The notes beneath the pieces were generated by a model. The model did not search any database. It had not been told where the DNA came from and was given only the letters and a program-made list of their open reading frames with translations. From Escherichia phage MIZ6: 64,000 nt of DNA. Below, piece after piece: positions 6,958 to 57,201 of the stretch; position 1 is the stretch's first letter; every line of letters starts with the position of its first letter. The translations under genes were made by a program, and so were the position numbers. The stretch lies in sequence record OR192075.1. One strand, 5' to 3'.

Positions 6958-7236
6958 TTATTTTCGGTTGTACTTCTGCCACTTTCGGTAATACTGCTTG
7001 TAATATTGTTTAATGTTTGGTGGTTCGTCACTATACATGTTATCAACCATCATGTCAATAAGACCTTCCGGTGTTTGATAGTTACCCGCTCGAATGAGTT
7101 CCTTAATCAAAAGATCTTGTGTCGCTTTATACTTGACAATAACAACTGTCTTTTCTGCCTTTCCAATTCCGATCCGGTCGTTAGCTCTCATAGCATCCCA
7201 CCAATCTTTTTTAAACTTCATGTTGTTAAATTTCAT
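6958..7236 (-). CDS. Hypothetical basic protein (92 aa)
   Basis: Track ORF. Confidence 0.4.
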   Translation of the reverse strand: MKFNNMKFKKDWWDAMRANDRIGIGKAEKTVVIVKYKATQDLLIKELIRAGNYQTPEGLIDMMVDNMYSDEPPNIKQYYKQYYRKWQKYNRK

Positions 7237-7239
7237 AAT

Positions 7240-8040
7240 TTAACCCTTCTTATATTCGCAAACATATTGAGTACCATAATCATAGCTAATGCGACCTTTC
7301 TCGATGACTTCAAAGCGGATTTCATCGTTTTCCCCTACCCACATTTTGTACTCGTTGAAGTATCCTGCTACATCCGGTTTGCTCATACCAACAACCATAT
7401 TTTTATATTGTTTGCTGCGTGTCAGATTTGATTTAAACACTTCGCGCTCATCAACATATACGAAAGAAGACAATTCACCTTCGGTCATGGTCATTTTCAG
7501 CTTGCCGCCCTTGTTGCCATAAGTAGAGTTGCCATACAATGGATCTTTGCGGCTGTCTGTTTCAATACCATCAATGATTTTCCATGTAAATTTTGCAATG
7601 CACTGATAAGTGATAGATCCAGAGATTTTCTCTTCTTTCTTCTGTTCTTCCACCACTTTTTCTTCCTGTTTCGGTTGTTCTTCTTCAACCTTCGCAGAAG
7701 TCTCTGAATCGCTTTCTGACTCGGTTTCTTCTTTAGGTAATACATTCATCAAGTTTTGGATTTGAGCGTTGTATACAGCCTCCAGTGGCTGGATCTGTCC
7801 GATATTGATCATTGTATCACGAACAGTTTTATTCCAGTTGCGTTGCTCTTGTTTCAGAGACGGATCAATCTTAACAGCCTTAACATACACCTCATGAAGT
7901 TTCGAATCCAGTGCGGAGATTGACTCATTAGCACAAATAAACTTCTCTGATTTGGTAGTGGCTTTAGCGCAATCAAAGGACGCAGCATTAGCACCGAAAG
8001 CAGTAGCGGAAAGAACGATCGCAGCGATAATGTTTTTCAT
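7240..8040 (-). CDS. Secreted protein with DUF1311 / LprI-like (lysozyme-inhibitor family) N-terminal domain
   Basis: Signal peptide MKNIIAAIVLSATAFGANA; FDCAKATT..EKFIC..LDSKLHEVY motif typical of DUF1311; acidic linker; SD GAGGAA; own promoter. Confidence 0.6.
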   Translation of the reverse strand: MKNIIAAIVLSATAFGANAASFDCAKATTKSEKFICANESISALDSKLHEVYVKAVKIDPSLKQEQRNWNKTVRDTMINIGQIQPLEAVYNAQIQNLMNVLPKEETESESDSETSAKVEEEQPKQEEKVVEEQKKEEKISGSITYQCIAKFTWKIIDGIETDSRKDPLYGNSTYGNKGGKLKMTMTEGELSSFVYVDEREVFKSNLTRSKQYKNMVVGMSKPDVAGYFNEYKMWVGENDEIRFEVIEKGRISYDYGTQYVCEYKKG

Positions 8041-8074
8041 AATATATTCCTCAATGTTTTGTCTTGATGGGAGT

Positions 8075-8103
8075 ATCTTACTACTCCCTTAATCCGGTGT
8101 CAA
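8075..8103 (-). promoter_or_regulatory. sigma70-like early promoter (TTGACA-17-TAAGAT) embedded in GGGAGTA..TACTCCC palindrome
   Basis: Minus-strand reading of tgtcaa (8098-8103) and atctta (8075-8080); palindrome 8069-8088. Confidence 0.4.
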
Positions 8104-8114
8104 CTACTTTTAAA

Positions 8115-8414
8115 TTATTTTCGCCATTCACCGGAAACAATAAAGTTTGTAAAGTGATCGTGGTCCGTGATAACGTCATTAAGTACCATATGTGGATACA
8201 CTTTAGTGATAATTTTACTAAGTACCATATGCGGATATGCTTTAGTGTAATCACGTTTACGATCAGTCATCCAGCCAACGAAAGTTGGTGCAAAGTACGG
8301 TACACCGTCAGACGATGCCATATTAAACCCTTTATCAACCATAAATGCAGCCGCCCTAAGATTTTTAATTGAAGTAGTGCGACTAATTTCAAAAACTTTA
8401 TCGGTAAAATTCAT
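8115..8414 (-). CDS. Hypothetical protein with internal tandem repeat
   Basis: Start moved to internal ATG (MNFTDK); contains KAYPHMVL / KVYPHMVL duplicated segment. Confidence 0.4.
   Translation of the reverse strand: MNFTDKVFEISRTTSIKNLRAAAFMVDKGFNMASSDGVPYFAPTFVGWMTDRKRDYTKAYPHMVLSKIITKVYPHMVLNDVITDHDHFTNFIVSGEWRK
8181..8251. repeat. Direct tandem repeat (~33 bp units, ~39 bp period) inside ORF 8115..8414
   Basis: aagtaccatatgtggatacactttagtgataat repeated as aagtaccatatgcggatatgctttagtgtaat. Confidence 0.5.
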
Positions 8415-8415
8415 T

Positions 8416-8625
8416 TTAAGCCCCCGCTCGTGCATTAATACGCATTTTCTGCATAGCCATGATCTGGTTTACTGCTTCTTCTTTACGTTCTTGCGTGATA
8501 ACGTGACCAGATTCCGCAAACTCTCCCGCAACTTCTTCTACGATCTCGCGAACTTGAGAACGTCCAAAGATGCGGTTTCCTTCGTAGCTCATAAACTCGG
8601 TTACTACTTGCTCGATAGATTTCAT
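8416..8625 (-). CDS. Hypothetical protein (69 aa)
   Basis: SD AAGGAG; own promoter upstream. Confidence 0.45.
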   Translation of the reverse strand: MKSIEQVVTEFMSYEGNRIFGRSQVREIVEEVAGEFAESGHVITQERKEEAVNQIMAMQKMRINARAGA

Positions 8626-8655
8626 GTGATTCTCCTTTCGTTTCGGTGTGGGAGT

Positions 8656-8684
8656 ATGTTAATACTCCCATTTCTTTACGTCAA
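8656..8684 (-). promoter_or_regulatory. sigma70-like promoter (TTGACG-17-TAACAT) with GGGAGTA..TACTCCC palindrome
   Basis: Palindrome gggagtatgttaatactccc at 8650-8669 overlaps -10. Confidence 0.35.
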
Positions 8685-8691
8685 CCAGTTT

Positions 8692-8934
8692 TTAGAAATT
8701 TTTCGCTTCTTCTTCGGTCATCATCACCGCGCATTCGTGCATAACTTTGAAAACCGGGTCAATCATATCGAATGCTTCGCTGGACAGTTTACGAGAAGCG
8801 ATTTTGATTGCTTCAACGTCTTCTACTACAGGAACAAAAACAGTTTTCAGTTCGTCGAGCACGGCAGCTTCTTTTTCATTCAGGAAGATCCCAGCGTCGT
8901 ACAGTGCAACTTCGATAACATTAACTTTAACCAT
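8692..8934 (-). CDS. Hypothetical acidic protein (80 aa)
   Basis: SD GGAGGA; own promoter upstream. Confidence 0.45.
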   Translation of the reverse strand: MVKVNVIEVALYDAGIFLNEKEAAVLDELKTVFVPVVEDVEAIKIASRKLSSEAFDMIDPVFKVMHECAVMMTEEEAKNF

Positions 8935-8967
8935 TTTATTTCCTCCAGTTCGTTTCGGTATGGGAGT

Positions 8968-8996
8968 ATAATACTACCGATGACCTTTGGCGTCAA
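8968..8996 (-). promoter_or_regulatory. sigma70-like promoter (TTGACG-17-TATTAT)
   Basis: Minus-strand reading of cgtcaa and ataata; degenerate GGGAGTA palindrome. Confidence 0.35.
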
Positions 8997-9198
8997 CTGC
9001 TTTTTTATTATTTTCGTGAAAATTTTTCGTCGCCTCATGTGCTTTTCGCTGGGCTTCTTGTTGTGCTTGCTGGCGTGCTGCCTCTTGTGAAGCCATAACG
9101 GAAGCATTTGCAGCAGTTACAGCCGCTACCATCGCTGCGGTATTAGCATTTACAGTACATGCACTAGCCAGCAAAGCAATTGCAATCATTTTCTTCAT
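8974..9198 (-). CDS. Small secreted or lipoprotein-like protein (74 aa)
   Basis: N-terminal signal peptide MKKMIAIALLASAC with Cys; Ala/Gln-rich mature part. Confidence 0.4.
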   Translation of the reverse strand: MKKMIAIALLASACTVNANTAAMVAAVTAANASVMASQEAARQQAQQEAQRKAHEATKNFHENNKKAVDAKGHR

Positions 9199-9365
9199 AG
9201 TTTCCCCTTTAGGTTATCTTCGACCTTCACCCATTCCGCGTATTCTTGCGCGGCTACTTTCGGATTTAGTCCGTCTTCGTACATTGCTTCAAGTAATTCT
9301 TCGTCGGTGGGCTTATACCCTAGATAAGCCTCCACCTGATTTTTCCAAATTTTATACCAGTTCAT
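9195..9365 (-). CDS. Hypothetical protein (56 aa)
   Basis: Start moved to internal ATG (MNWYKIW) to remove overlap with upstream gene. Confidence 0.3.
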   Translation of the reverse strand: MNWYKIWKNQVEAYLGYKPTDEELLEAMYEDGLNPKVAAQEYAEWVKVEDNLKGKL

Positions 9366-9369
9366 ATTA

Positions 9370-9642
9370 TCACCAGTCAAGAGCGCGTGTCTCTGCGTCT
9401 TCCCATGCTTGATCCATAACAGCCTTGAAAACATATTCTAAAGTATCATCTTTAGAGAATCCGAAGACCTTAGACGGAATATCTTCAATTGCTACTCCCG
9501 CGACTTCTGCATTACGCGCTTGGCAATAATGCAACTCTAAGTTATCGAGATAGCGACCGCCTAATTTCTCCATATCATCCCAGCATTTCCAGTAACCTAC
9601 TTTATTTGCAATCGCTAACACCTTGCTGTTTTCGTTGTTCAT
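9370..9642 (-). CDS. Hypothetical protein (90 aa)
   Basis: Start moved to ATG (MNNENSK) with SD AAGGAG; promoter and terminator upstream. Confidence 0.4.
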   Translation of the reverse strand: MNNENSKVLAIANKVGYWKCWDDMEKLGGRYLDNLELHYCQARNAEVAGVAIEDIPSKVFGFSKDDTLEYVFKAVMDQAWEDAETRALDW

Positions 9643-9673
9643 CTTTGATTCTCCTTTTGTTTGGTATGTGTGT

Positions 9674-9702
9674 ATTATGCAATGATGGATTTGTGAAGTC
9701 AA
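9674..9702 (-). promoter_or_regulatory. sigma70-like promoter (TTGACT-17-CATAAT)
   Basis: Minus-strand reading of agtcaa and attatg. Confidence 0.35.
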
Positions 9703-9715
9703 CAACTTTTTAAAA

Positions 9716-9742
9716 TAAAAAAGCCGACCACACGGATCGGCT
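9716..9742 (-). terminator. Intrinsic terminator
   Basis: Hairpin agccgaccacacggatcggct; minus-strand RNA followed by U-run. Confidence 0.45.
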
Positions 9743-9752
9743 TAATAATCAG

Positions 9753-10145
9753 TTACTTACTAAATTTCTTTTTGGCTTCGTCTACCGCATGAGATGCCAG
9801 TACCGCAGCCGCATGTGCACTTTTATCTGTGTTGCAGAGAACACCCAGATAAACATCACGCCAAAGTTTAATCATCTCGTAGATCATATCAATATCATTT
9901 TCTTGTTTGTTGGCGATGCTATTCGTCGTTATCTGGTAAGGTAACGGCTTAATCTGTACTGGTTCCGCCATCGGGCTAAACGGTTTCGGATCAGTCATCG
10001 GATTAATTGATGGCGATGTTTTCCATACGTCATTATTCCACGGTTTAACGGTTGTACCGTATATTTTATAAGGATTTTTGTCTGGATCAACCATCCATGC
10101 ATGATGGATACCTAAACCATTTGAAGTGATGCGTCGTTCAGTCAT
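9753..10145 (-). CDS. Hypothetical protein (130 aa)
   Basis: ATG with SD GAGGGGG. Confidence 0.45.
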   Translation of the reverse strand: MTERRITSNGLGIHHAWMVDPDKNPYKIYGTTVKPWNNDVWKTSPSINPMTDPKPFSPMAEPVQIKPLPYQITTNSIANKQENDIDMIYEMIKLWRDVYLGVLCNTDKSAHAAAVLASHAVDEAKKKFSK

Positions 10146-13818: not shown

Positions 13819-13950
13819 TTATTTTGCTTCTACAACCTTGCGGATTGTGCGGTCTGATACATTATAGATTCGTGCCAGTTCGCCTTTAGTCAAGCCGCGA
13901 GCGTATTGTTTACGGATGGTTTCTTTCTGGATAGCGGTCAGTTTAGTCAT
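13819..13950 (-). CDS. Small helix-turn-helix protein (43 aa) between rIIB and rIIA
   Basis: Hand-translated MTKLTAIQKETIRKQYARGLTKGELARIYNVSDRTIRKVVEAK; SD GAGGTG 5 nt before ATG; below 60-aa track cutoff. Confidence 0.4.
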   Translation of the reverse strand: MTKLTAIQKETIRKQYARGLTKGELARIYNVSDRTIRKVVEAK

Positions 13951-17101: not shown

Positions 17102-17135
17102 TATTAAATCCTCATAAAAGAAAAGGGAGACTCCC

Positions 17136-17163
17136 ATTATAGAGAATCTCCCTTGTATGTCAA
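17136..17163 (-). promoter_or_regulatory. sigma70-like promoter (TTGACA-16-TATAAT) followed by GGGAGtCTCCC hairpin plus U-run
   Basis: Sits directly after the gp39 stop codon. Confidence 0.4.
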
Positions 17164-35172: not shown

Positions 35173-35237
35173 ATAATCACCTCTCACAAATTACATCATT
35201 AAAACGGGGAGTATTTACACTCCCCACAAACATTATA

Positions 35238-35924
35238 TTAGTCGGTGTAGCTGGAGTCAAGGTCACACGCGATCATATAAGATACGGTTTCACTTGCCAG
35301 CCATACAGCCTTACGGCGAGTGAAGCTCAGTTTGTAATCGCCGAAGTCAGTAGCAACCAGTTTCATGTTATCTTTACGAATAAAGAAATGGAAGTCTGCG
35401 GTTCCGGTATATTCGCCCATATCAAGACAAAACATCTCATTAGGATTATTTTTGTCAATCTCTTCCCAGCCTTTGATCATCAGACGACCATCAATCGGAA
35501 GAAATTCAAGGCGATCCACTTTAAGCTGATTGCTCATTTTCATAAGCTGTTTCAGATCGTCGTTGCTCAGTTCGTAATCTACATCGCTTGCAGGTGGAGT
35601 AACTCGGCCTTTCGGTGATACGATAGCGGCAGCACTAGCACCAGGATAATTAATTTTCAGACGATCATTAGACACACGAATGTTTCCGGTTCGGTCATCA
35701 ACCGTAATATCTGCTTCATCGCCTACCAGATTCAGAATACCCAGGAAAGAGTTAAGATCATAGATCCCAATTTCGTGTTCCAGTTCTTGATTCAGAGTCG
35801 CTTCACCATATACAACGTTTGTCATGTTTTTGGTGATCAGGACGTTTCCTTTTTTCAGGATGATACCTGGGTTAATCGCGGAAAAGTTTTTCAGGGTAGC
35901 AATGGTTTCTTTAGTCAGTTTCAT
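35238..35924 (-). CDS. 45: Sliding clamp
   Basis: 228 aa from ATG; similarity to T4 gp45 N-terminus (ATLKNF..IN.GI.LK) and matching length. Confidence 0.85.
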   Translation of the reverse strand: MKLTKETIATLKNFSAINPGIILKKGNVLITKNMTNVVYGEATLNQELEHEIGIYDLNSFLGILNLVGDEADITVDDRTGNIRVSNDRLKINYPGASAAAIVSPKGRVTPPASDVDYELSNDDLKQLMKMSNQLKVDRLEFLPIDGRLMIKGWEEIDKNNPNEMFCLDMGEYTGTADFHFFIRKDNMKLVATDFGDYKLSFTRRKAVWLASETVSYMIACDLDSSYTD

Positions 35925-40023: not shown

Positions 40024-40052
40024 AGTATAACGGGGATTTCTCCCCGCGTCAA
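40024..40052 (-). promoter_or_regulatory. sigma70-like promoter (TTGACG-17-TATACT) with CGGGGA..TCCCCG palindrome in spacer
   Basis: Directly after gene 47 stop; drives the 47-46 intervening ORFs. Confidence 0.35.
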
Positions 40053-44185: not shown

Positions 44186-44444
44186 AAATCGCCCTCAGTT
44201 CTTTATAGCCTCCAATGTGCTCGTTGTTAATGAATATCTGGGGGTATACAAACCGGAGGCTCTTTGAGTTCAGCCTCCCCGCCAGTTCTTCAATCATATC
44301 ACGGTCGGGAATAATGTCAACCCCGACCTGCTTGAATACTGGTTTAAGTGTATACGGAATACCCAGATCATCCAGTAGCTTCATTGCACTAATACAACCA
44401 TAACAATGATAAGCCTCTTTCGGTATGCCGTATATCTCGATCAT
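44175..44444 (-). CDS. Glutaredoxin/NrdH-like redoxin
   Basis: 89 aa; CYGC active-site motif and C-terminal IGGYKEL pattern. Confidence 0.6.
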   Translation of the reverse strand: MIEIYGIPKEAYHCYGCISAMKLLDDLGIPYTLKPVFKQVGVDIIPDRDMIEELAGRLNSKSLRFVYPQIFINNEHIGGYKELRAIYDY

Positions 44445-47471: not shown

Positions 47472-47500
47472 AGTATAGGGGATCTCGCGATCCCCGTCAA
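47472..47500 (-). promoter_or_regulatory. sigma70-like promoter (TTGACG-17-TATACT) with GGGGATC..GATCCCC palindrome (two GATC) filling the spacer
   Basis: Minus-strand reading of cgtcaa (47495-47500) and agtata (47472-47477). Confidence 0.35.
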
Positions 47501-50602: not shown

Positions 50603-51097
50603 TTATTTTACCAGTTCTGCTAATTCTTTTTCTTTAGCTTCCAGTTCAGCCTTAAGCTGTTTAATCTCTTGTCGCTTCTTATTAGCGGCTTCTTGCTTAC
50701 TATTTCGGATAACCTGATCTAGATACAACTCCCAATCCTGAATATTTTTGATAATATAACCGTCAACATTAATTGGTCGGATATTTAGTACAGCTTCCAG
50801 TTTAGTCGCAAAAACTTTAATTGCTGGGGTGAAGTATTCATATTCGTTATCTTCAAACCAATAACCTAGACTTGCATTATCAATACGAAGACGAAGTTCA
50901 AGATCAAGGTCTTTATCTTCGGTGTAAAGATCTTTCACCTGACCCAGCGAACTAACAACAACTTTAAAACGAATTTTATCTACACCACCAAACACATCAG
51001 TAAGTATACCAGCAATTGAGCTATTAGCGCAAGATTGGTCGCTGAATGCGTCAAGGTTTTCTTTAGTTACAGTATACCAAACATCTTGTACCCACAT
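50603..51097 (-). CDS. Family-A related protein (shares FATKL module and coiled-coil tail)
   Basis: KVFATKLEAV segment matches family-A gene 44441..44917 C-terminal module; KQLKAELEAKEKELAELVK tail. Confidence 0.45.
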   Translation of the reverse strand: MWVQDVWYTVTKENLDAFSDQSCANSSIAGILTDVFGGVDKIRFKVVVSSLGQVKDLYTEDKDLDLELRLRIDNASLGYWFEDNEYEYFTPAIKVFATKLEAVLNIRPINVDGYIIKNIQDWELYLDQVIRNSKQEAANKKRQEIKQLKAELEAKEKELAELVK

Positions 51098-51118
51098 AAT
51101 ATAATCCTCTCGTTGTTA

Positions 51119-51146
51119 AGTGGGAGTATTATAGCATACTCCCTTC
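51119..51146 (-). promoter_or_regulatory. sigma70-like promoter (TTGACA-16-TATAAT) inside GGGAGTA-N8-TACTCCC palindrome
   Basis: Palindrome 51113-51134 overlaps -10. Confidence 0.4.
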
Positions 51147-51151
51147 GCATG

Positions 51152-52330
51152 TCAAGCACTAACTTTTTTCTTTATTGCTTTCACCTTCTGGCGAATTGCT
51201 CGAATCTCTTCGATCTCTTTTTCAGTATCTTTAACAATTTCTTTGCGATTCTGAATATCTTTATCGAGATTATCATCAAGTTTAGGCAGCATGTCAATCA
51301 AGAACTTTTTAAGGTCTTTCAGGTTGCGAATAACAGTACCTTCACCCATTACCGCCACGCCTACACCATCCGGCAGATCACCAAACAGCTTAACCAGTTC
51401 AGACAGATGATCATGATCTTCTAGTGCTTCTTCTGATTCAGATGGCAGTTCAACAAAGTTATAACGTTCATCATTGCTGATCAGGTGATACCAGCAAAGC
51501 CCAAAAGATTTAGGAGTATATTCTACACCACCAACTTCAACTGCGTCAACACTTCCGAAAGAATCTACTTTAGTTACCTTAAATCCATGTTCCAGCGTTT
51601 TAATAATTTCAATAACATGACTGGATACGGTTTCAGTATTAAACCAATGAGGCAAATTATGTGGATTTGGCTTGTATCGTTCGCCTACTTTAAATCTCTG
51701 ACCACGCTCTTGCATACGGACATATTCAACTCGCGTGATTTCCGCGAAGTATTCAAATTCGCTACCGTCAAACAAGCAATTCCATTGATCACAAAAACGA
51801 TCCGCCTTGACGGTTTCACCTTTCGCGGTGATCATGGTAGCTGATCCGTGCAATTCTTCTTCAACCAAAAAGCCATATTCGACAAAATCAACAAGTTTCA
51901 TGGCTTCTTTGTGCTCTGGGTCATGCTCTCCCCAGAATCGCTTAAATTCTTGCAAACCTTCTGGTGTAAACGAATAACATTTACCTTTTTCAAAGTAAGT
52001 CGGCATTGCATCCTCTTTCTTGTTCATCGCTTCGTATGCCTCTTTTGAGATGCGTTTAAAGTATTTACGCTCATCGTGCATAATCATAGTAGCCCAATAA
52101 TAAACGATATCCTCAGCGGAATAAACTACATCTCCAGCTTCAATAGTAATAACATGACCGTTGTCATCTTTTTCTAATACTTTAAAGCCCTTTTCGACGA
52201 TTTCAGCAACCCGAATATGACCACGGCGCGAAGCATCGGTCAGAATAATTGAATAGCGAGAAAAGTCTAGAAACTCATCTTTACCACCTTCACGGAATGC
52301 ATAGTAATGACCTTCAAAGAATTTAGCCAT
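51152..52330 (-). CDS. Family-A paralog with about four tandem domain copies
   Basis: 392 aa; repeated ...F.V.....G.....IE.G.V.Y......YF..I blocks incl. ERKYFKRI; helical C-terminus. Confidence 0.5.
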   Translation of the reverse strand: MAKFFEGHYYAFREGGKDEFLDFSRYSIILTDASRRGHIRVAEIVEKGFKVLEKDDNGHVITIEAGDVVYSAEDIVYYWATMIMHDERKYFKRISKEAYEAMNKKEDAMPTYFEKGKCYSFTPEGLQEFKRFWGEHDPEHKEAMKLVDFVEYGFLVEEELHGSATMITAKGETVKADRFCDQWNCLFDGSEFEYFAEITRVEYVRMQERGQRFKVGERYKPNPHNLPHWFNTETVSSHVIEIIKTLEHGFKVTKVDSFGSVDAVEVGGVEYTPKSFGLCWYHLISNDERYNFVELPSESEEALEDHDHLSELVKLFGDLPDGVGVAVMGEGTVIRNLKDLKKFLIDMLPKLDDNLDKDIQNRKEIVKDTEKEIEEIRAIRQKVKAIKKKVSA

Positions 52331-52361
52331 AATATAATCCTCTAGTTGTTTAAATGGGAGT

Positions 52362-52390
52362 ATCTTACTACTCCCGTTTCATCATGTCAA
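52362..52390 (-). promoter_or_regulatory. sigma70-like promoter (TTGACA-17-TAAGAT) inside GGGAGTATCTTACTACTCCC palindrome
   Basis: 20-bp palindrome identical to the one at 8069-8088. Confidence 0.4.
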
Positions 52391-52393
52391 GCG

Positions 52394-52954
52394 TTAAAGT
52401 GACTTTTGGATCTCTTTCAGTTCAGCTACTTTATCGGCGCTGAATTTAGCGTAGGTATCATGTCGAATAATTTCACTTTCAAGAAAGGTTTCCAGCCGAG
52501 ATCTATTTTCAATAAGGAACTCTTTCAGGTCTTCCGCGTTCTTGATAAAGATTTTATTGTCAGTAATGTCATCTTCAATCGCAAAGGAGATAGAGCGAAC
52601 TTTACCAAACAAGTTAATCAGATCTTCCAGCGATTCTTCTTTCTTAACTGGTTTCATTTCTTCAAACTGCTTTTTAGTGATGCGTTTAAAGTATTTGCGC
52701 TCGTTTGCAGCAATCAGAACAGATGCACCTTCATACCCATGAGTTTCTACCAGATACACACGCCCCATCGCATCAACAGTGAGAACTTTAAAGCCGTTAC
52801 AAAGCACGTCATACAAGAACTTATTATGTTGCGGACATCGTTTGATAAATTCTGCGGCTGTTTCTGCACTACGGAAAGTATAGTAACGACCTCGTTCAAA
52901 AACAGCATCATTTGAAGACTTAGCCGGATACAATTTATACGTTTTCTGTACCAT
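52394..52954 (-). CDS. Family-A paralog
   Basis: YKLYPAKSS...ERKYFKRI; start moved to ATG (MVQKTYK) after GAGGATTATATT. Confidence 0.5.
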   Translation of the reverse strand: MVQKTYKLYPAKSSNDAVFERGRYYTFRSAETAAEFIKRCPQHNKFLYDVLCNGFKVLTVDAMGRVYLVETHGYEGASVLIAANERKYFKRITKKQFEEMKPVKKEESLEDLINLFGKVRSISFAIEDDITDNKIFIKNAEDLKEFLIENRSRLETFLESEIIRHDTYAKFSADKVAELKEIQKSL

Positions 52955-52968
52955 AATATAATCCTCTA

Positions 52969-53241
52969 TCATTTCACTAATTGAACAGCACGAAACAGAA
53001 TGCGGTCACACGGAAGAAGCATAAATTCCCAACGCGGATCAAAGTCTTTAGCGGTATATGTTTTCCCATCAACCGAGATTTCACTTACATAACCAATAGG
53101 TGACACTTTAAGAACAGTAAACCCATTCTTGATGACTTCGTAGGTATCTTTCAATCCTTCGTAGTCATCCTCTAGGAAGTCTTTACGTGCTTGCTCAGAT
53201 TTAAAAACATAGGCAACACCGGATTTAAACATCTTACGCAT
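52969..53241 (-). CDS. Family-A paralog, single domain (~90 aa)
   Basis: YVFKSEQARKDF...SVDGKTYT...ILFRAV; start moved to ATG (MRKMFKSG) with SD AAGGAG. Confidence 0.5.
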   Translation of the reverse strand: MRKMFKSGVAYVFKSEQARKDFLEDDYEGLKDTYEVIKNGFTVLKVSPIGYVSEISVDGKTYTAKDFDPRWEFMLLPCDRILFRAVQLVK

Positions 53242-53272
53242 TGTTGATTCTCCTTCTTGATTAGATGGGAGT

Positions 53273-53301
53273 ATTTTACTACTCCCATTTCTTATTGTCA
53301 A
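53273..53301 (-). promoter_or_regulatory. sigma70-like promoter (TTGACA-17-TAAAAT) inside GGGAGTATTTTACTACTCCC palindrome
   Basis: Minus-strand reading of tgtcaa (53296-53301) and atttta (53273-53278). Confidence 0.4.
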
Positions 53302-53304
53302 CTA

Positions 53305-53778
53305 CTATCTTAATCTTTGTATAAATTGTTTCTTATACTTCTTCGTGATCTCTTCTCGTGTATCAGCGTCGCAGTAATCGAAACCTTCTGCGTCCATAAT
53401 AGCAACCATCTCCGCGCGTGTCAAGCGTGAAAATCGTTTTACTTTATCAACAGCATATTGAGGATGTAAATGATTGTTGGTGTAGTCTCCTTTGATGTAA
53501 TTAACATAGTTTGTAGCCCAAACAACGAAATCAGCACCTAAAGCACCAACACCAAACCGTTTAAAGTCTCCGGTCAACGATCCTTCTAGGCGGTTGCAAC
53601 ACGAATGAAGCAATCCCCTTACGCGGCCTTGCCCTTTACCATCTAGATCGTGGTCGTGGTCAAGATGGTTTTTGCTCATATCCTCAAAAAGTGGCAATTG
53701 ACAAAGGGGGCAAATGCCCCCCTGTTTTTCGAATAGTTCTTGTTTGTACTCTTTAGCACTCTTAGCAGTCAGTAACAT
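53305..53778 (-). CDS. 49: Endonuclease VII (Holliday-junction resolvase)
   Basis: 157 aa from ATG, same as T4; CPLCQ...NHLDHDHDL..G.VRGLL motif; SD GGAGGGTG. Confidence 0.8.
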   Translation of the reverse strand: MLLTAKSAKEYKQELFEKQGGICPLCQLPLFEDMSKNHLDHDHDLDGKGQGRVRGLLHSCCNRLEGSLTGDFKRFGVGALGADFVVWATNYVNYIKGDYTNNHLHPQYAVDKVKRFSRLTRAEMVAIMDAEGFDYCDADTREEITKKYKKQFIQRLR

Positions 53779-56463: not shown

Positions 56464-56532
56464 AATATAATCCTCACATCGTTCATTTGATGCGGTCATT
56501 ATATGATAACCGCATTTTCATGTCAACAGTTT

Positions 56533-57172: not shown

Positions 57173-57201
57173 AGTATAGGGGATCACCGATCCCCTGTCA
57201 A
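57173..57201 (-). promoter_or_regulatory. sigma70-like promoter (TTGACA-17-TATACT) with GGGGATCaccGATCCCC palindrome (two GATC) as the spacer
   Basis: Minus-strand reading of tgtcaa (57196-57201) and agtata (57173-57178). Confidence 0.4.

Follow-up and report, generated by a model that had tools for sequence, protein, structure and literature searches.

Promoter-early stem-loops of RB49-like phages and the MIZ6 sequence

The promoter-early stem-loop (PeSL) was named by Arbiol et al. (2010; PMC2839356) in phages phi1 and RB49, where it is composed of an AT-rich region, a sigma70 consensus promoter, a stable G-rich/C-rich stem-loop, a Shine-Dalgarno (SD) sequence and a start codon. They counted 52 of these elements in phi1 and 51 in RB49, most of which stand upstream of ORFans in hyperplastic regions, and sorted them by stem position into five subclasses, the two commonest being those in which the stem lies between -35 and -10 and those in which it overlaps the -10 box (PMC2839356). 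Both promoter and terminator activity were shown with lacZ fusions, the PeSL206/205 promoter reaching approximately 13,000 Miller units, and PeSLs were put forward as linkers whose homology would allow modular shuffling and the formation of mini-circles (PMC2839356). The same authors speculated that a specific recombination protein might bind the conserved stem (PMC2839356). Later, Comeau et al. (2014; PMC4122927) widened the PeSL concept to T4/PST and KVP40/nt-1.

Here we analysed a stretch of 64,000 nucleotides from Escherichia phage MIZ6 (OR192075.1), referred to as the window, which has a GC content of approximately 40%, a negative GC skew across almost all of its length and nearly all of its genes on the minus strand. 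Positions 7000-10000 show 100% identity to Escherichia phage MIZ2 (OR167178, 71001-74001) and 95-98% identity to GEC-3S, phi1, E26 and other Krischvirus, the RB49-like T4-type coliphages. The window matches MIZ2, a Krischvirus of the RB49/phi1 group, at 100% identity; the Krischvirus phages phi1, RB49, GEC-3S and JSE are 93-98% identical to it, and 58 Krischvirus records match its positions 51000-53400 at 91-100% identity.

The original prediction held that one palindrome, GGGAGTA followed at a short distance by TACTCCC, is built into the -10 region of several early promoters. We found five exact matches to GGGAGTA-N4..10-TACTCCC in the window, at 8069-8088, 8650-8669, 51122-51143, 52356-52375 and 53267-53286 (S1 to S5 hereafter), against 0.00 matches in 100 dinucleotide-preserving shuffles, so that the palindrome is commoner than expected by chance. 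Four of the positions had been given exactly, while the third had been placed at 51113-51134, nine bases away from the correct 51122-51143. The arms are separated by N8 in S3 and by N6 in the other copies. When up to three mismatches were allowed, the extra matches were at chance level only; shortening the arms to GGGAGT-N6-ACTCCC added one site in the window (35207-35224), and isolated GGGAGTA half-sites occur at about chance frequency. An exact search also agreed with the claim that the 20-mers at 8069-8088 and 52356-52375, approximately 44 kb apart, are identical. Shared descent or homogenisation of the copies, and no dedicated binding site, is the best explanation of this identity.

All five sites have the composition of a PeSL. 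Each one extends from an upstream stop codon to a downstream SD and start codon on the coding strand, and includes a promoter close to the sigma70 consensus TTGACA-N17-TATAAT after an AT-rich region, with a GGGAGTA/TACTCCC stem that spans the -10. They occupy the same loci as their orthologs in RB49 (OZ035808) and phi1, and they lie in variable regions with indels, as seen at the ORF263 junction, in the gene arrangements upstream of S1 and at the S4 boundary. Two more identical 20-mers were found in the 100-140 kb variable region of phi1. S1-S5 thus almost certainly belong to the PeSL family, as judged from their sequence; the palindromes are the stem-loop half of an element already described, and are ordinary for RB49-like phages. 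We consider it very probable that a promoter, a hairpin insulator and a homology patch, as united in a PeSL, explain these sites. The value of the finding is mainly one of correct annotation, given that PeSL linkers are proposed to drive the shuffling of genes in T4-type variable regions.

Anatomy of the five cassettes and the possible fate of read-through RNA

Each cassette fills a gap of 54-74 nt between minus-strand ORFs. As had been claimed, the palindrome overlaps the -10 of an early sigma70-type promoter in all five copies, always on the minus (coding) strand and within TTGAC(A/G)-N16/17-TAnnAT. AT-rich runs such as AATAATTTAAAAGTAG lie upstream of the -35, and the -10 hexamers are, in order from S1 to S5, TAAGAT, TAACAT, TATAAT, TAAGAT and TAAAAT. 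The hexamer lies in the loop and takes in the first T of the 3' arm, with ACTCCC at -6 to -1; the position of the 3' arm is constant at -7..-1, and it is the 5' arm that is displaced by 2 bp in the N8 copy relative to the N6 ones. The base directly past the stem is A in all five copies, seven bases after the -10, and is the expected +1 according to standard sigma70 geometry. A leader of approximately 20-27 nt with GAGGA or AAGGAG as SD precedes the ATG. Two other kinds of promoter were considered and rejected: a late promoter on the opposite strand, for which no TATAAATA is present, and a DNA hairpin promoter of the N4 type, given that there is a standard -35/-10 pair.

The S1 cassette (8041..8114, minus strand) has its -35 (TTGACA) at 8103-8098, its -10 (TAAGAT) at 8080-8075 and its predicted +1 A at 8068, with the 5' arm GGGAGTA at 8088-8082 and the 3' arm TACTCCC at 8075-8069. 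It is followed by the SD GAGGA and by the ATG, at 8040, of a 266-aa ORF, and its phi1 ortholog stands upstream of ORF262. The 266-aa protein has matches in 11 IMG/VR loci, most of them at 62-69% identity, which were left out of the comparison. S2 (8626..8691, minus strand) combines a TTGACG -35 at 8684-8679 and a TAACAT -10 at 8661-8656 with a predicted +1 A at 8649; its palindrome (8669-8650) gives a 9-bp stem with the loop UUAA, and the ATG at 8625 opens a 69-aa ORF. In S3 (51098..51155, minus strand) the -35 TTGACA (51155-51150) is separated by a 16-nt spacer from a TGn extended -10, TATAAT (51133-51128), with the predicted +1 A at 51121, the N8 palindrome at 51143-51122 and the ATG of a 164-aa ORF at 51097; its arms are unchanged in 15 genomes. 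S4 (52331..52393, minus strand) bears TTGACA at 52390-52385, TAAGAT at 52367-52362 and a predicted +1 A at 52355, and its palindrome (52375-52356) is the same 20-mer as in S1; the ATG at 52330 belongs to a 392-aa frd.2/goF-like ORF. S5 (53242..53304, minus strand), directly downstream of gene 49 (endonuclease VII), has TTGACA at 53301-53296, TAAAAT at 53278-53273, a predicted +1 A at 53266, a 9-bp stem at 53286-53267 and an ATG at 53241. In the annotation of GEC-3S, S1, S2, S3 and S5 are promoters, and in that of G37-3, S5 is an ARNOLD terminator.

The predicted hairpins of S1-S5 have 7-9 bp, with folding energies of -11.9 to -13.8 kcal/mol and z-scores of -3.2 to -4.5 relative to shuffles. 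No U-tract was found in the sense RNA 3' of the five stems, whose A/C-rich tails read AUCAAGAC, ACACCGAA, ACUUAACA, AUUUAAAC and AUCUAAUC. A terminator scan of the minus strand made no calls at S3-S5, and Rfam covariance models at gathering score gave no matches anywhere in the window. On the plus (antisense) strand, T-rich tracts (ATTTCTTATT and ATTTCTTTAC) were observed past the hairpins of S5 (53263-53290) and S2 (8650-8669), and the terminator scan marks S5 as terminator-like in this orientation; with such tracts, these two hairpins could stop antisense transcription better than sense transcription.

Host RNA polymerase would begin transcription at the A that follows the stem in S1-S5; promoter activity was shown for other PeSLs. 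With a start directly past the stem, the transcript of the cassette itself would lack the 5' arm and form no hairpin, and the structure would act only on transcripts that arrive from upstream. In this sense, the proposal that the hairpin is restricted to read-through RNA and has no U-tract agrees with the A directly past the stem and with the sense tails. Read-through RNA would carry both arms and may fold into a hairpin of 7-9 bp with -12 to -14 kcal/mol, which in the GGGAGTA subclass would attenuate or end read-through, or at least cap the 3' end of the upstream message, and the small early genes would thereby be insulated as separate units. We searched the literature for Krischvirus transcript maps and found none. 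A compact design in which the promoter starts past its own hairpin could also serve for synthetic insulators.

Termination or attenuation is a role that we assign to the hairpin of the GGGAGTA subclass only tentatively. In each of the three PeSLs assayed with lacZ (211/210, 206/205 and 193/192), a GGGGATC stem stands between -35 and -10 and UAUAAU or UAUACU comes after it, so that termination by GGGAGTA stems is an extrapolation from them. Intrinsic terminators are GC-rich hairpins directly followed by a U-tract. S1-S5 share with them a GC-rich hairpin at a gene end, but their stems have only 7-9 bp, and the lack of a sense U-tract makes efficient intrinsic termination doubtful. The hairpin could equally well act as a pause site, as a terminator that Rho assists or as a structure that protects the 3' end.

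Another suggestion, of which the original prediction named the processing site, is that the hairpin serves in RNA processing or stability, either as a site for RegB (GGAG) or RNase E or as a 3' cap against exonucleases, which would protect the upstream mRNA after cleavage or after Rho-dependent termination further downstream. The missing U-tract at S1-S5 and the GGAG contained in the 5' arm speak in its favour, and by analogy with REP-type stabilisers, stable hairpins that block 3' exonucleases, the structures could be firm enough for such protection. RB49 also encodes a diverged RegB, and GGAU, the SD of its own regB, is cleaved in vivo, as described in a review. However, other PeSL stems lack GGAG. 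Moreover, the GGAG of S1-S5 is buried in the stem, and RegB prefers an accessible GGAG in SD-like contexts. The processing idea gained no support, and we consider a processing or stability role unlikely as the explanation of these sites. An RNase III site was rejected, the stems being too short.

Stem diversity and the question of a protein operator

Besides S1-S5, approximately ten further PeSLs with other stems are present in the window. A GC-rich stem of at least 7 pairs was found in 12 of 48 candidate promoter windows, compared with 2.6% of random windows (p = 2e-9), and the stems are unrelated in sequence (GGGGATC/GATCCCC, CGGGGA/TCCCCG, GCGGT/ACCGC and AAGGGAGA../..TCTCCCTT). The GGGGATC..GATCCCC element at 57173..57201 (minus strand), with its stem between -35 and -10, is of the type assayed by Arbiol et al.; a second one stands at 47472-47500 (minus strand), and the loop of the latter was observed to be GCGA in MIZ2, LF73P4 and Skers and TCGC in RB49 (L135, OZ035808). 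A CGGGGA/TCCCCG stem lies at 40052, a GCGGT../..ACCGC stem spans the -10 at 56526, and further PeSLs with other stems are at 44320, 33234, 30505 and 24184.

In the PeSL at 17110..17163 (minus strand) the stem is 13 bp long, including two G.U pairs, the loop is exactly the -10 TATAAT, and the U-run UUUUCUUUUAU comes next; with -21.5 kcal/mol and a z-score of -4.2, this element superimposes a consensus promoter on a canonical intrinsic terminator, and is a full match to intrinsic terminators. A degenerate relative of S1-S5, at 8950..8996 (minus strand), has the order TTGACG-N17-TATTAT-ACTCCC, in which the 3' arm is kept and the 5' GGGAGTA arm is lost. In this cassette an alternative stem, TCGGTA/TACCGA, can span the -10, and it is annotated as a promoter in GEC-3S. 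The same stem core appears in another setting at 35195..35260 (minus strand), where GGGGAGU-GUAAAU-ACUCCCC, with GUUUUAAU after it, is found downstream of TTGACT-N17-TATAAT; its 35195-35235 part is 99-100% conserved in three other genomes.

Similar arrangements are found in other phage contigs. In IMG/VR, at least 125 matches to TTGAC-N18-TAnnATACTCCC were obtained, at least 12 of them with GGGAGTA upstream at spacings from N3 to N12. The N3, N10 and N12 spacings occur in these other phage contigs with the position of the 3' arm kept. Additionally, in at least 16 IMG/VR loci tRNA genes are directly preceded by TTGACA-..-GGGAGT-TA(T/G)AAT-ACTCCC, whose loop consists of precisely the -10. These tRNA-gene promoter hairpins are on unrelated contigs (loci including L003, L004, L013, L017, L019, L024 and L028), and a megablast search of the phage genome collection with the GGGAGT-TATAAT-ACTCCC tRNA-gene promoter gave no match. 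Putative hairpins around the -10 extend beyond Krischvirus.

Within the genus the cassettes are highly conserved. In 13 aligned sequences, 6% of the columns of the S3-S5 cassettes are variable (11/180), compared with 16% in flanking coding sequence (388/2421), and among 15 Krischvirus genomes the variable columns number 2/42 in the arms and 16/205 in the remaining cassette sequence. The orthologous stems of these 15 genomes show no compensatory pair changes, hence the orthologs offer no covariation support. Four stem variants were found, all in the 3' CCC, and three of them break a pair: S1 of phi1 has CTC, which is G.U-compatible, S2 of GEC-3S and of RB49 has ACC with one broken pair, and S4 of ECD7 reads TACTACA, with the stem lost. 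Such pair-breaking variants suggest that the stem is not indispensable at every site. As a test for selection at the RNA level, sense G.U was counted against antisense A.C mismatches in PeSL stems, which gave 5 against 2, a non-significant difference to which orthologs contribute part of the excess, and the sense RNA is more stable than the antisense RNA in 21 of 25 non-tied stems, a count confounded by loop sequence.

These patterns bear on the original prediction of a repressor or operator overlapping the -10. In such a reading, a dimeric phage protein would bind GGGAGTA half-sites across the -10 and shut the early promoters off. S1-S5 do resemble palindromic repressor operators in being perfect inverted repeats centred on the -10 of a strong promoter. 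The recurrence of one arm sequence at five promoters, with isolated half-sites only at about chance level, would fit such a protein, as would the speculation on stem binding for recombination in PMC2839356. A small HTH protein of no assigned function is also encoded in the window, and had been named as one candidate binder. This ORF (MTKLTAIQKETIRKQYARGLTKGELARIYNVSDRTIRKVVEAK; 13819-13950, minus strand), between rIIA and rIIB, has a real HTH similarity (CENP-B_N-like, E = 7e-6; Sigma70_r4, 2e-4; PHROG 15481, function not assigned), and it encodes 43 aa and not four residues as had been written. Nothing ties it to the motif. A dimeric operator has a fixed half-site spacing and one sequence shared by all regulated promoters, whereas here the half-sites stand N6 or N8 apart within the window and N3, N10 or N12 apart in other contigs, and the stems of neighbouring early promoters in this genome are unrelated in sequence and differently placed, which favours a structural element. 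The G.U-compatible variant of phi1 also argues against protein recognition. Variable spacing and interchangeable stems together suggest that the hairpin has been selected, and not a protein operator; the operator claim gained no support, and we regard a dimeric repressor such as the 43-aa protein acting at these sites as highly improbable. In the wider form, in which GGGAGTA/TACTCCC would be the site of a phage HTH protein or recombination factor that switches off or recombines a subset of early promoters, a protein-bound site would explain why the same 7-mer arms occur at five or more promoters with no U-tract, but this too is very unlikely.

Proposed recombination at the cassettes and relation to described elements

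In the PeSL reading, the conserved cassette of 55-75 bp would serve as recombination homology for the insertion, deletion and swapping of flanking genes, a homology-patch role that is supported by the comparisons made here and in the literature. ORF263 of phi1 is absent from MIZ2, and the junction falls in a TTTAAAA..GTTGACA segment common to PeSLs of the GGGGATC and GGGAGTA types; this indel is of the kind predicted by the PeSL model. Upstream of S1 there are three gene arrangements, of which GEC-3S has the third, and the phi1-unique ORFan 263.1 lies within the S1 variable region. Immediately upstream of S4, divergence rises from approximately 10% to 30-43% variable columns, which marks a mosaic boundary at the S4 cassette.

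Other observations were made around these cassettes. The segment 52394-52640, the 3' part of a 192-aa ORF adjoining S4, has 30-43% variable columns in 13 Krischvirus genomes; the corresponding values are approximately 8% for the PeSL beside it and 13% for the next gene. A 106-aa ORF at 8115-8435 is present in MIZ2 and absent from GEC-3S. Phage phi1 lacks approximately 500 bp at 8706-9207, a segment that contains two small ORFs as well as the degenerate PeSL at 8996.

The putative breakpoints near S1 and S2 fall partly outside PeSLs. Exchange at these sites could also be explained at the DNA level: while the DNA is replicated or recombined, the inverted repeat would fold into a hairpin or a cruciform and thereby promote the exchange of cassettes and the formation of mini-circles, the RNA effects being incidental. 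PeSL mini-circles have been reported, and in RB49 the PeSL at 47500 has the exact reverse complement of the loop (TCGC in place of GCGA) between identical flanks, which shows that the arms can interact in DNA. The loops of the phi1 paralogs PeSL211/210 and PeSL206/205 are GGT and ACC, and both loop observations are a signature of inversion between arms. Nevertheless, cruciforms extrude poorly from 7-bp arms around loops of 6-8 nt, the ORF263 junction lies in the AT-rich/-35 part, outside the stem, and a loop inversion in the GGGAGTA subclass would destroy the -10. We find it quite unlikely that a DNA structure is the function of the palindromes, and favour the PeSL reading with its homology patch.

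Compared with the PeSLs of T4/PST and KVP40/nt-1 (PMC4122927), S1-S5 share the composite of promoter and stem-loop, the location in variable regions and an implicated role in gene exchange. The promoter consensus of those elements differs (TTTACW.., TTGYVH..), as do their stems (AGNA/TCNT, A3-4G3/C3T3-4), and unlike S1-S5, which span the -10, the PST stems lie upstream of the promoter (PMC4122927). In relation to the PeSLs of phi1 and RB49 nothing essential is different, apart from the assayed stems being GGGGATC while S1-S5 have GGGAGTA without a U-tract. The genus, the orthologous positions, the architecture and the explicitly described subclass that overlaps the -10 are the same, as are the small ORFs without assigned function nearby and the indels.
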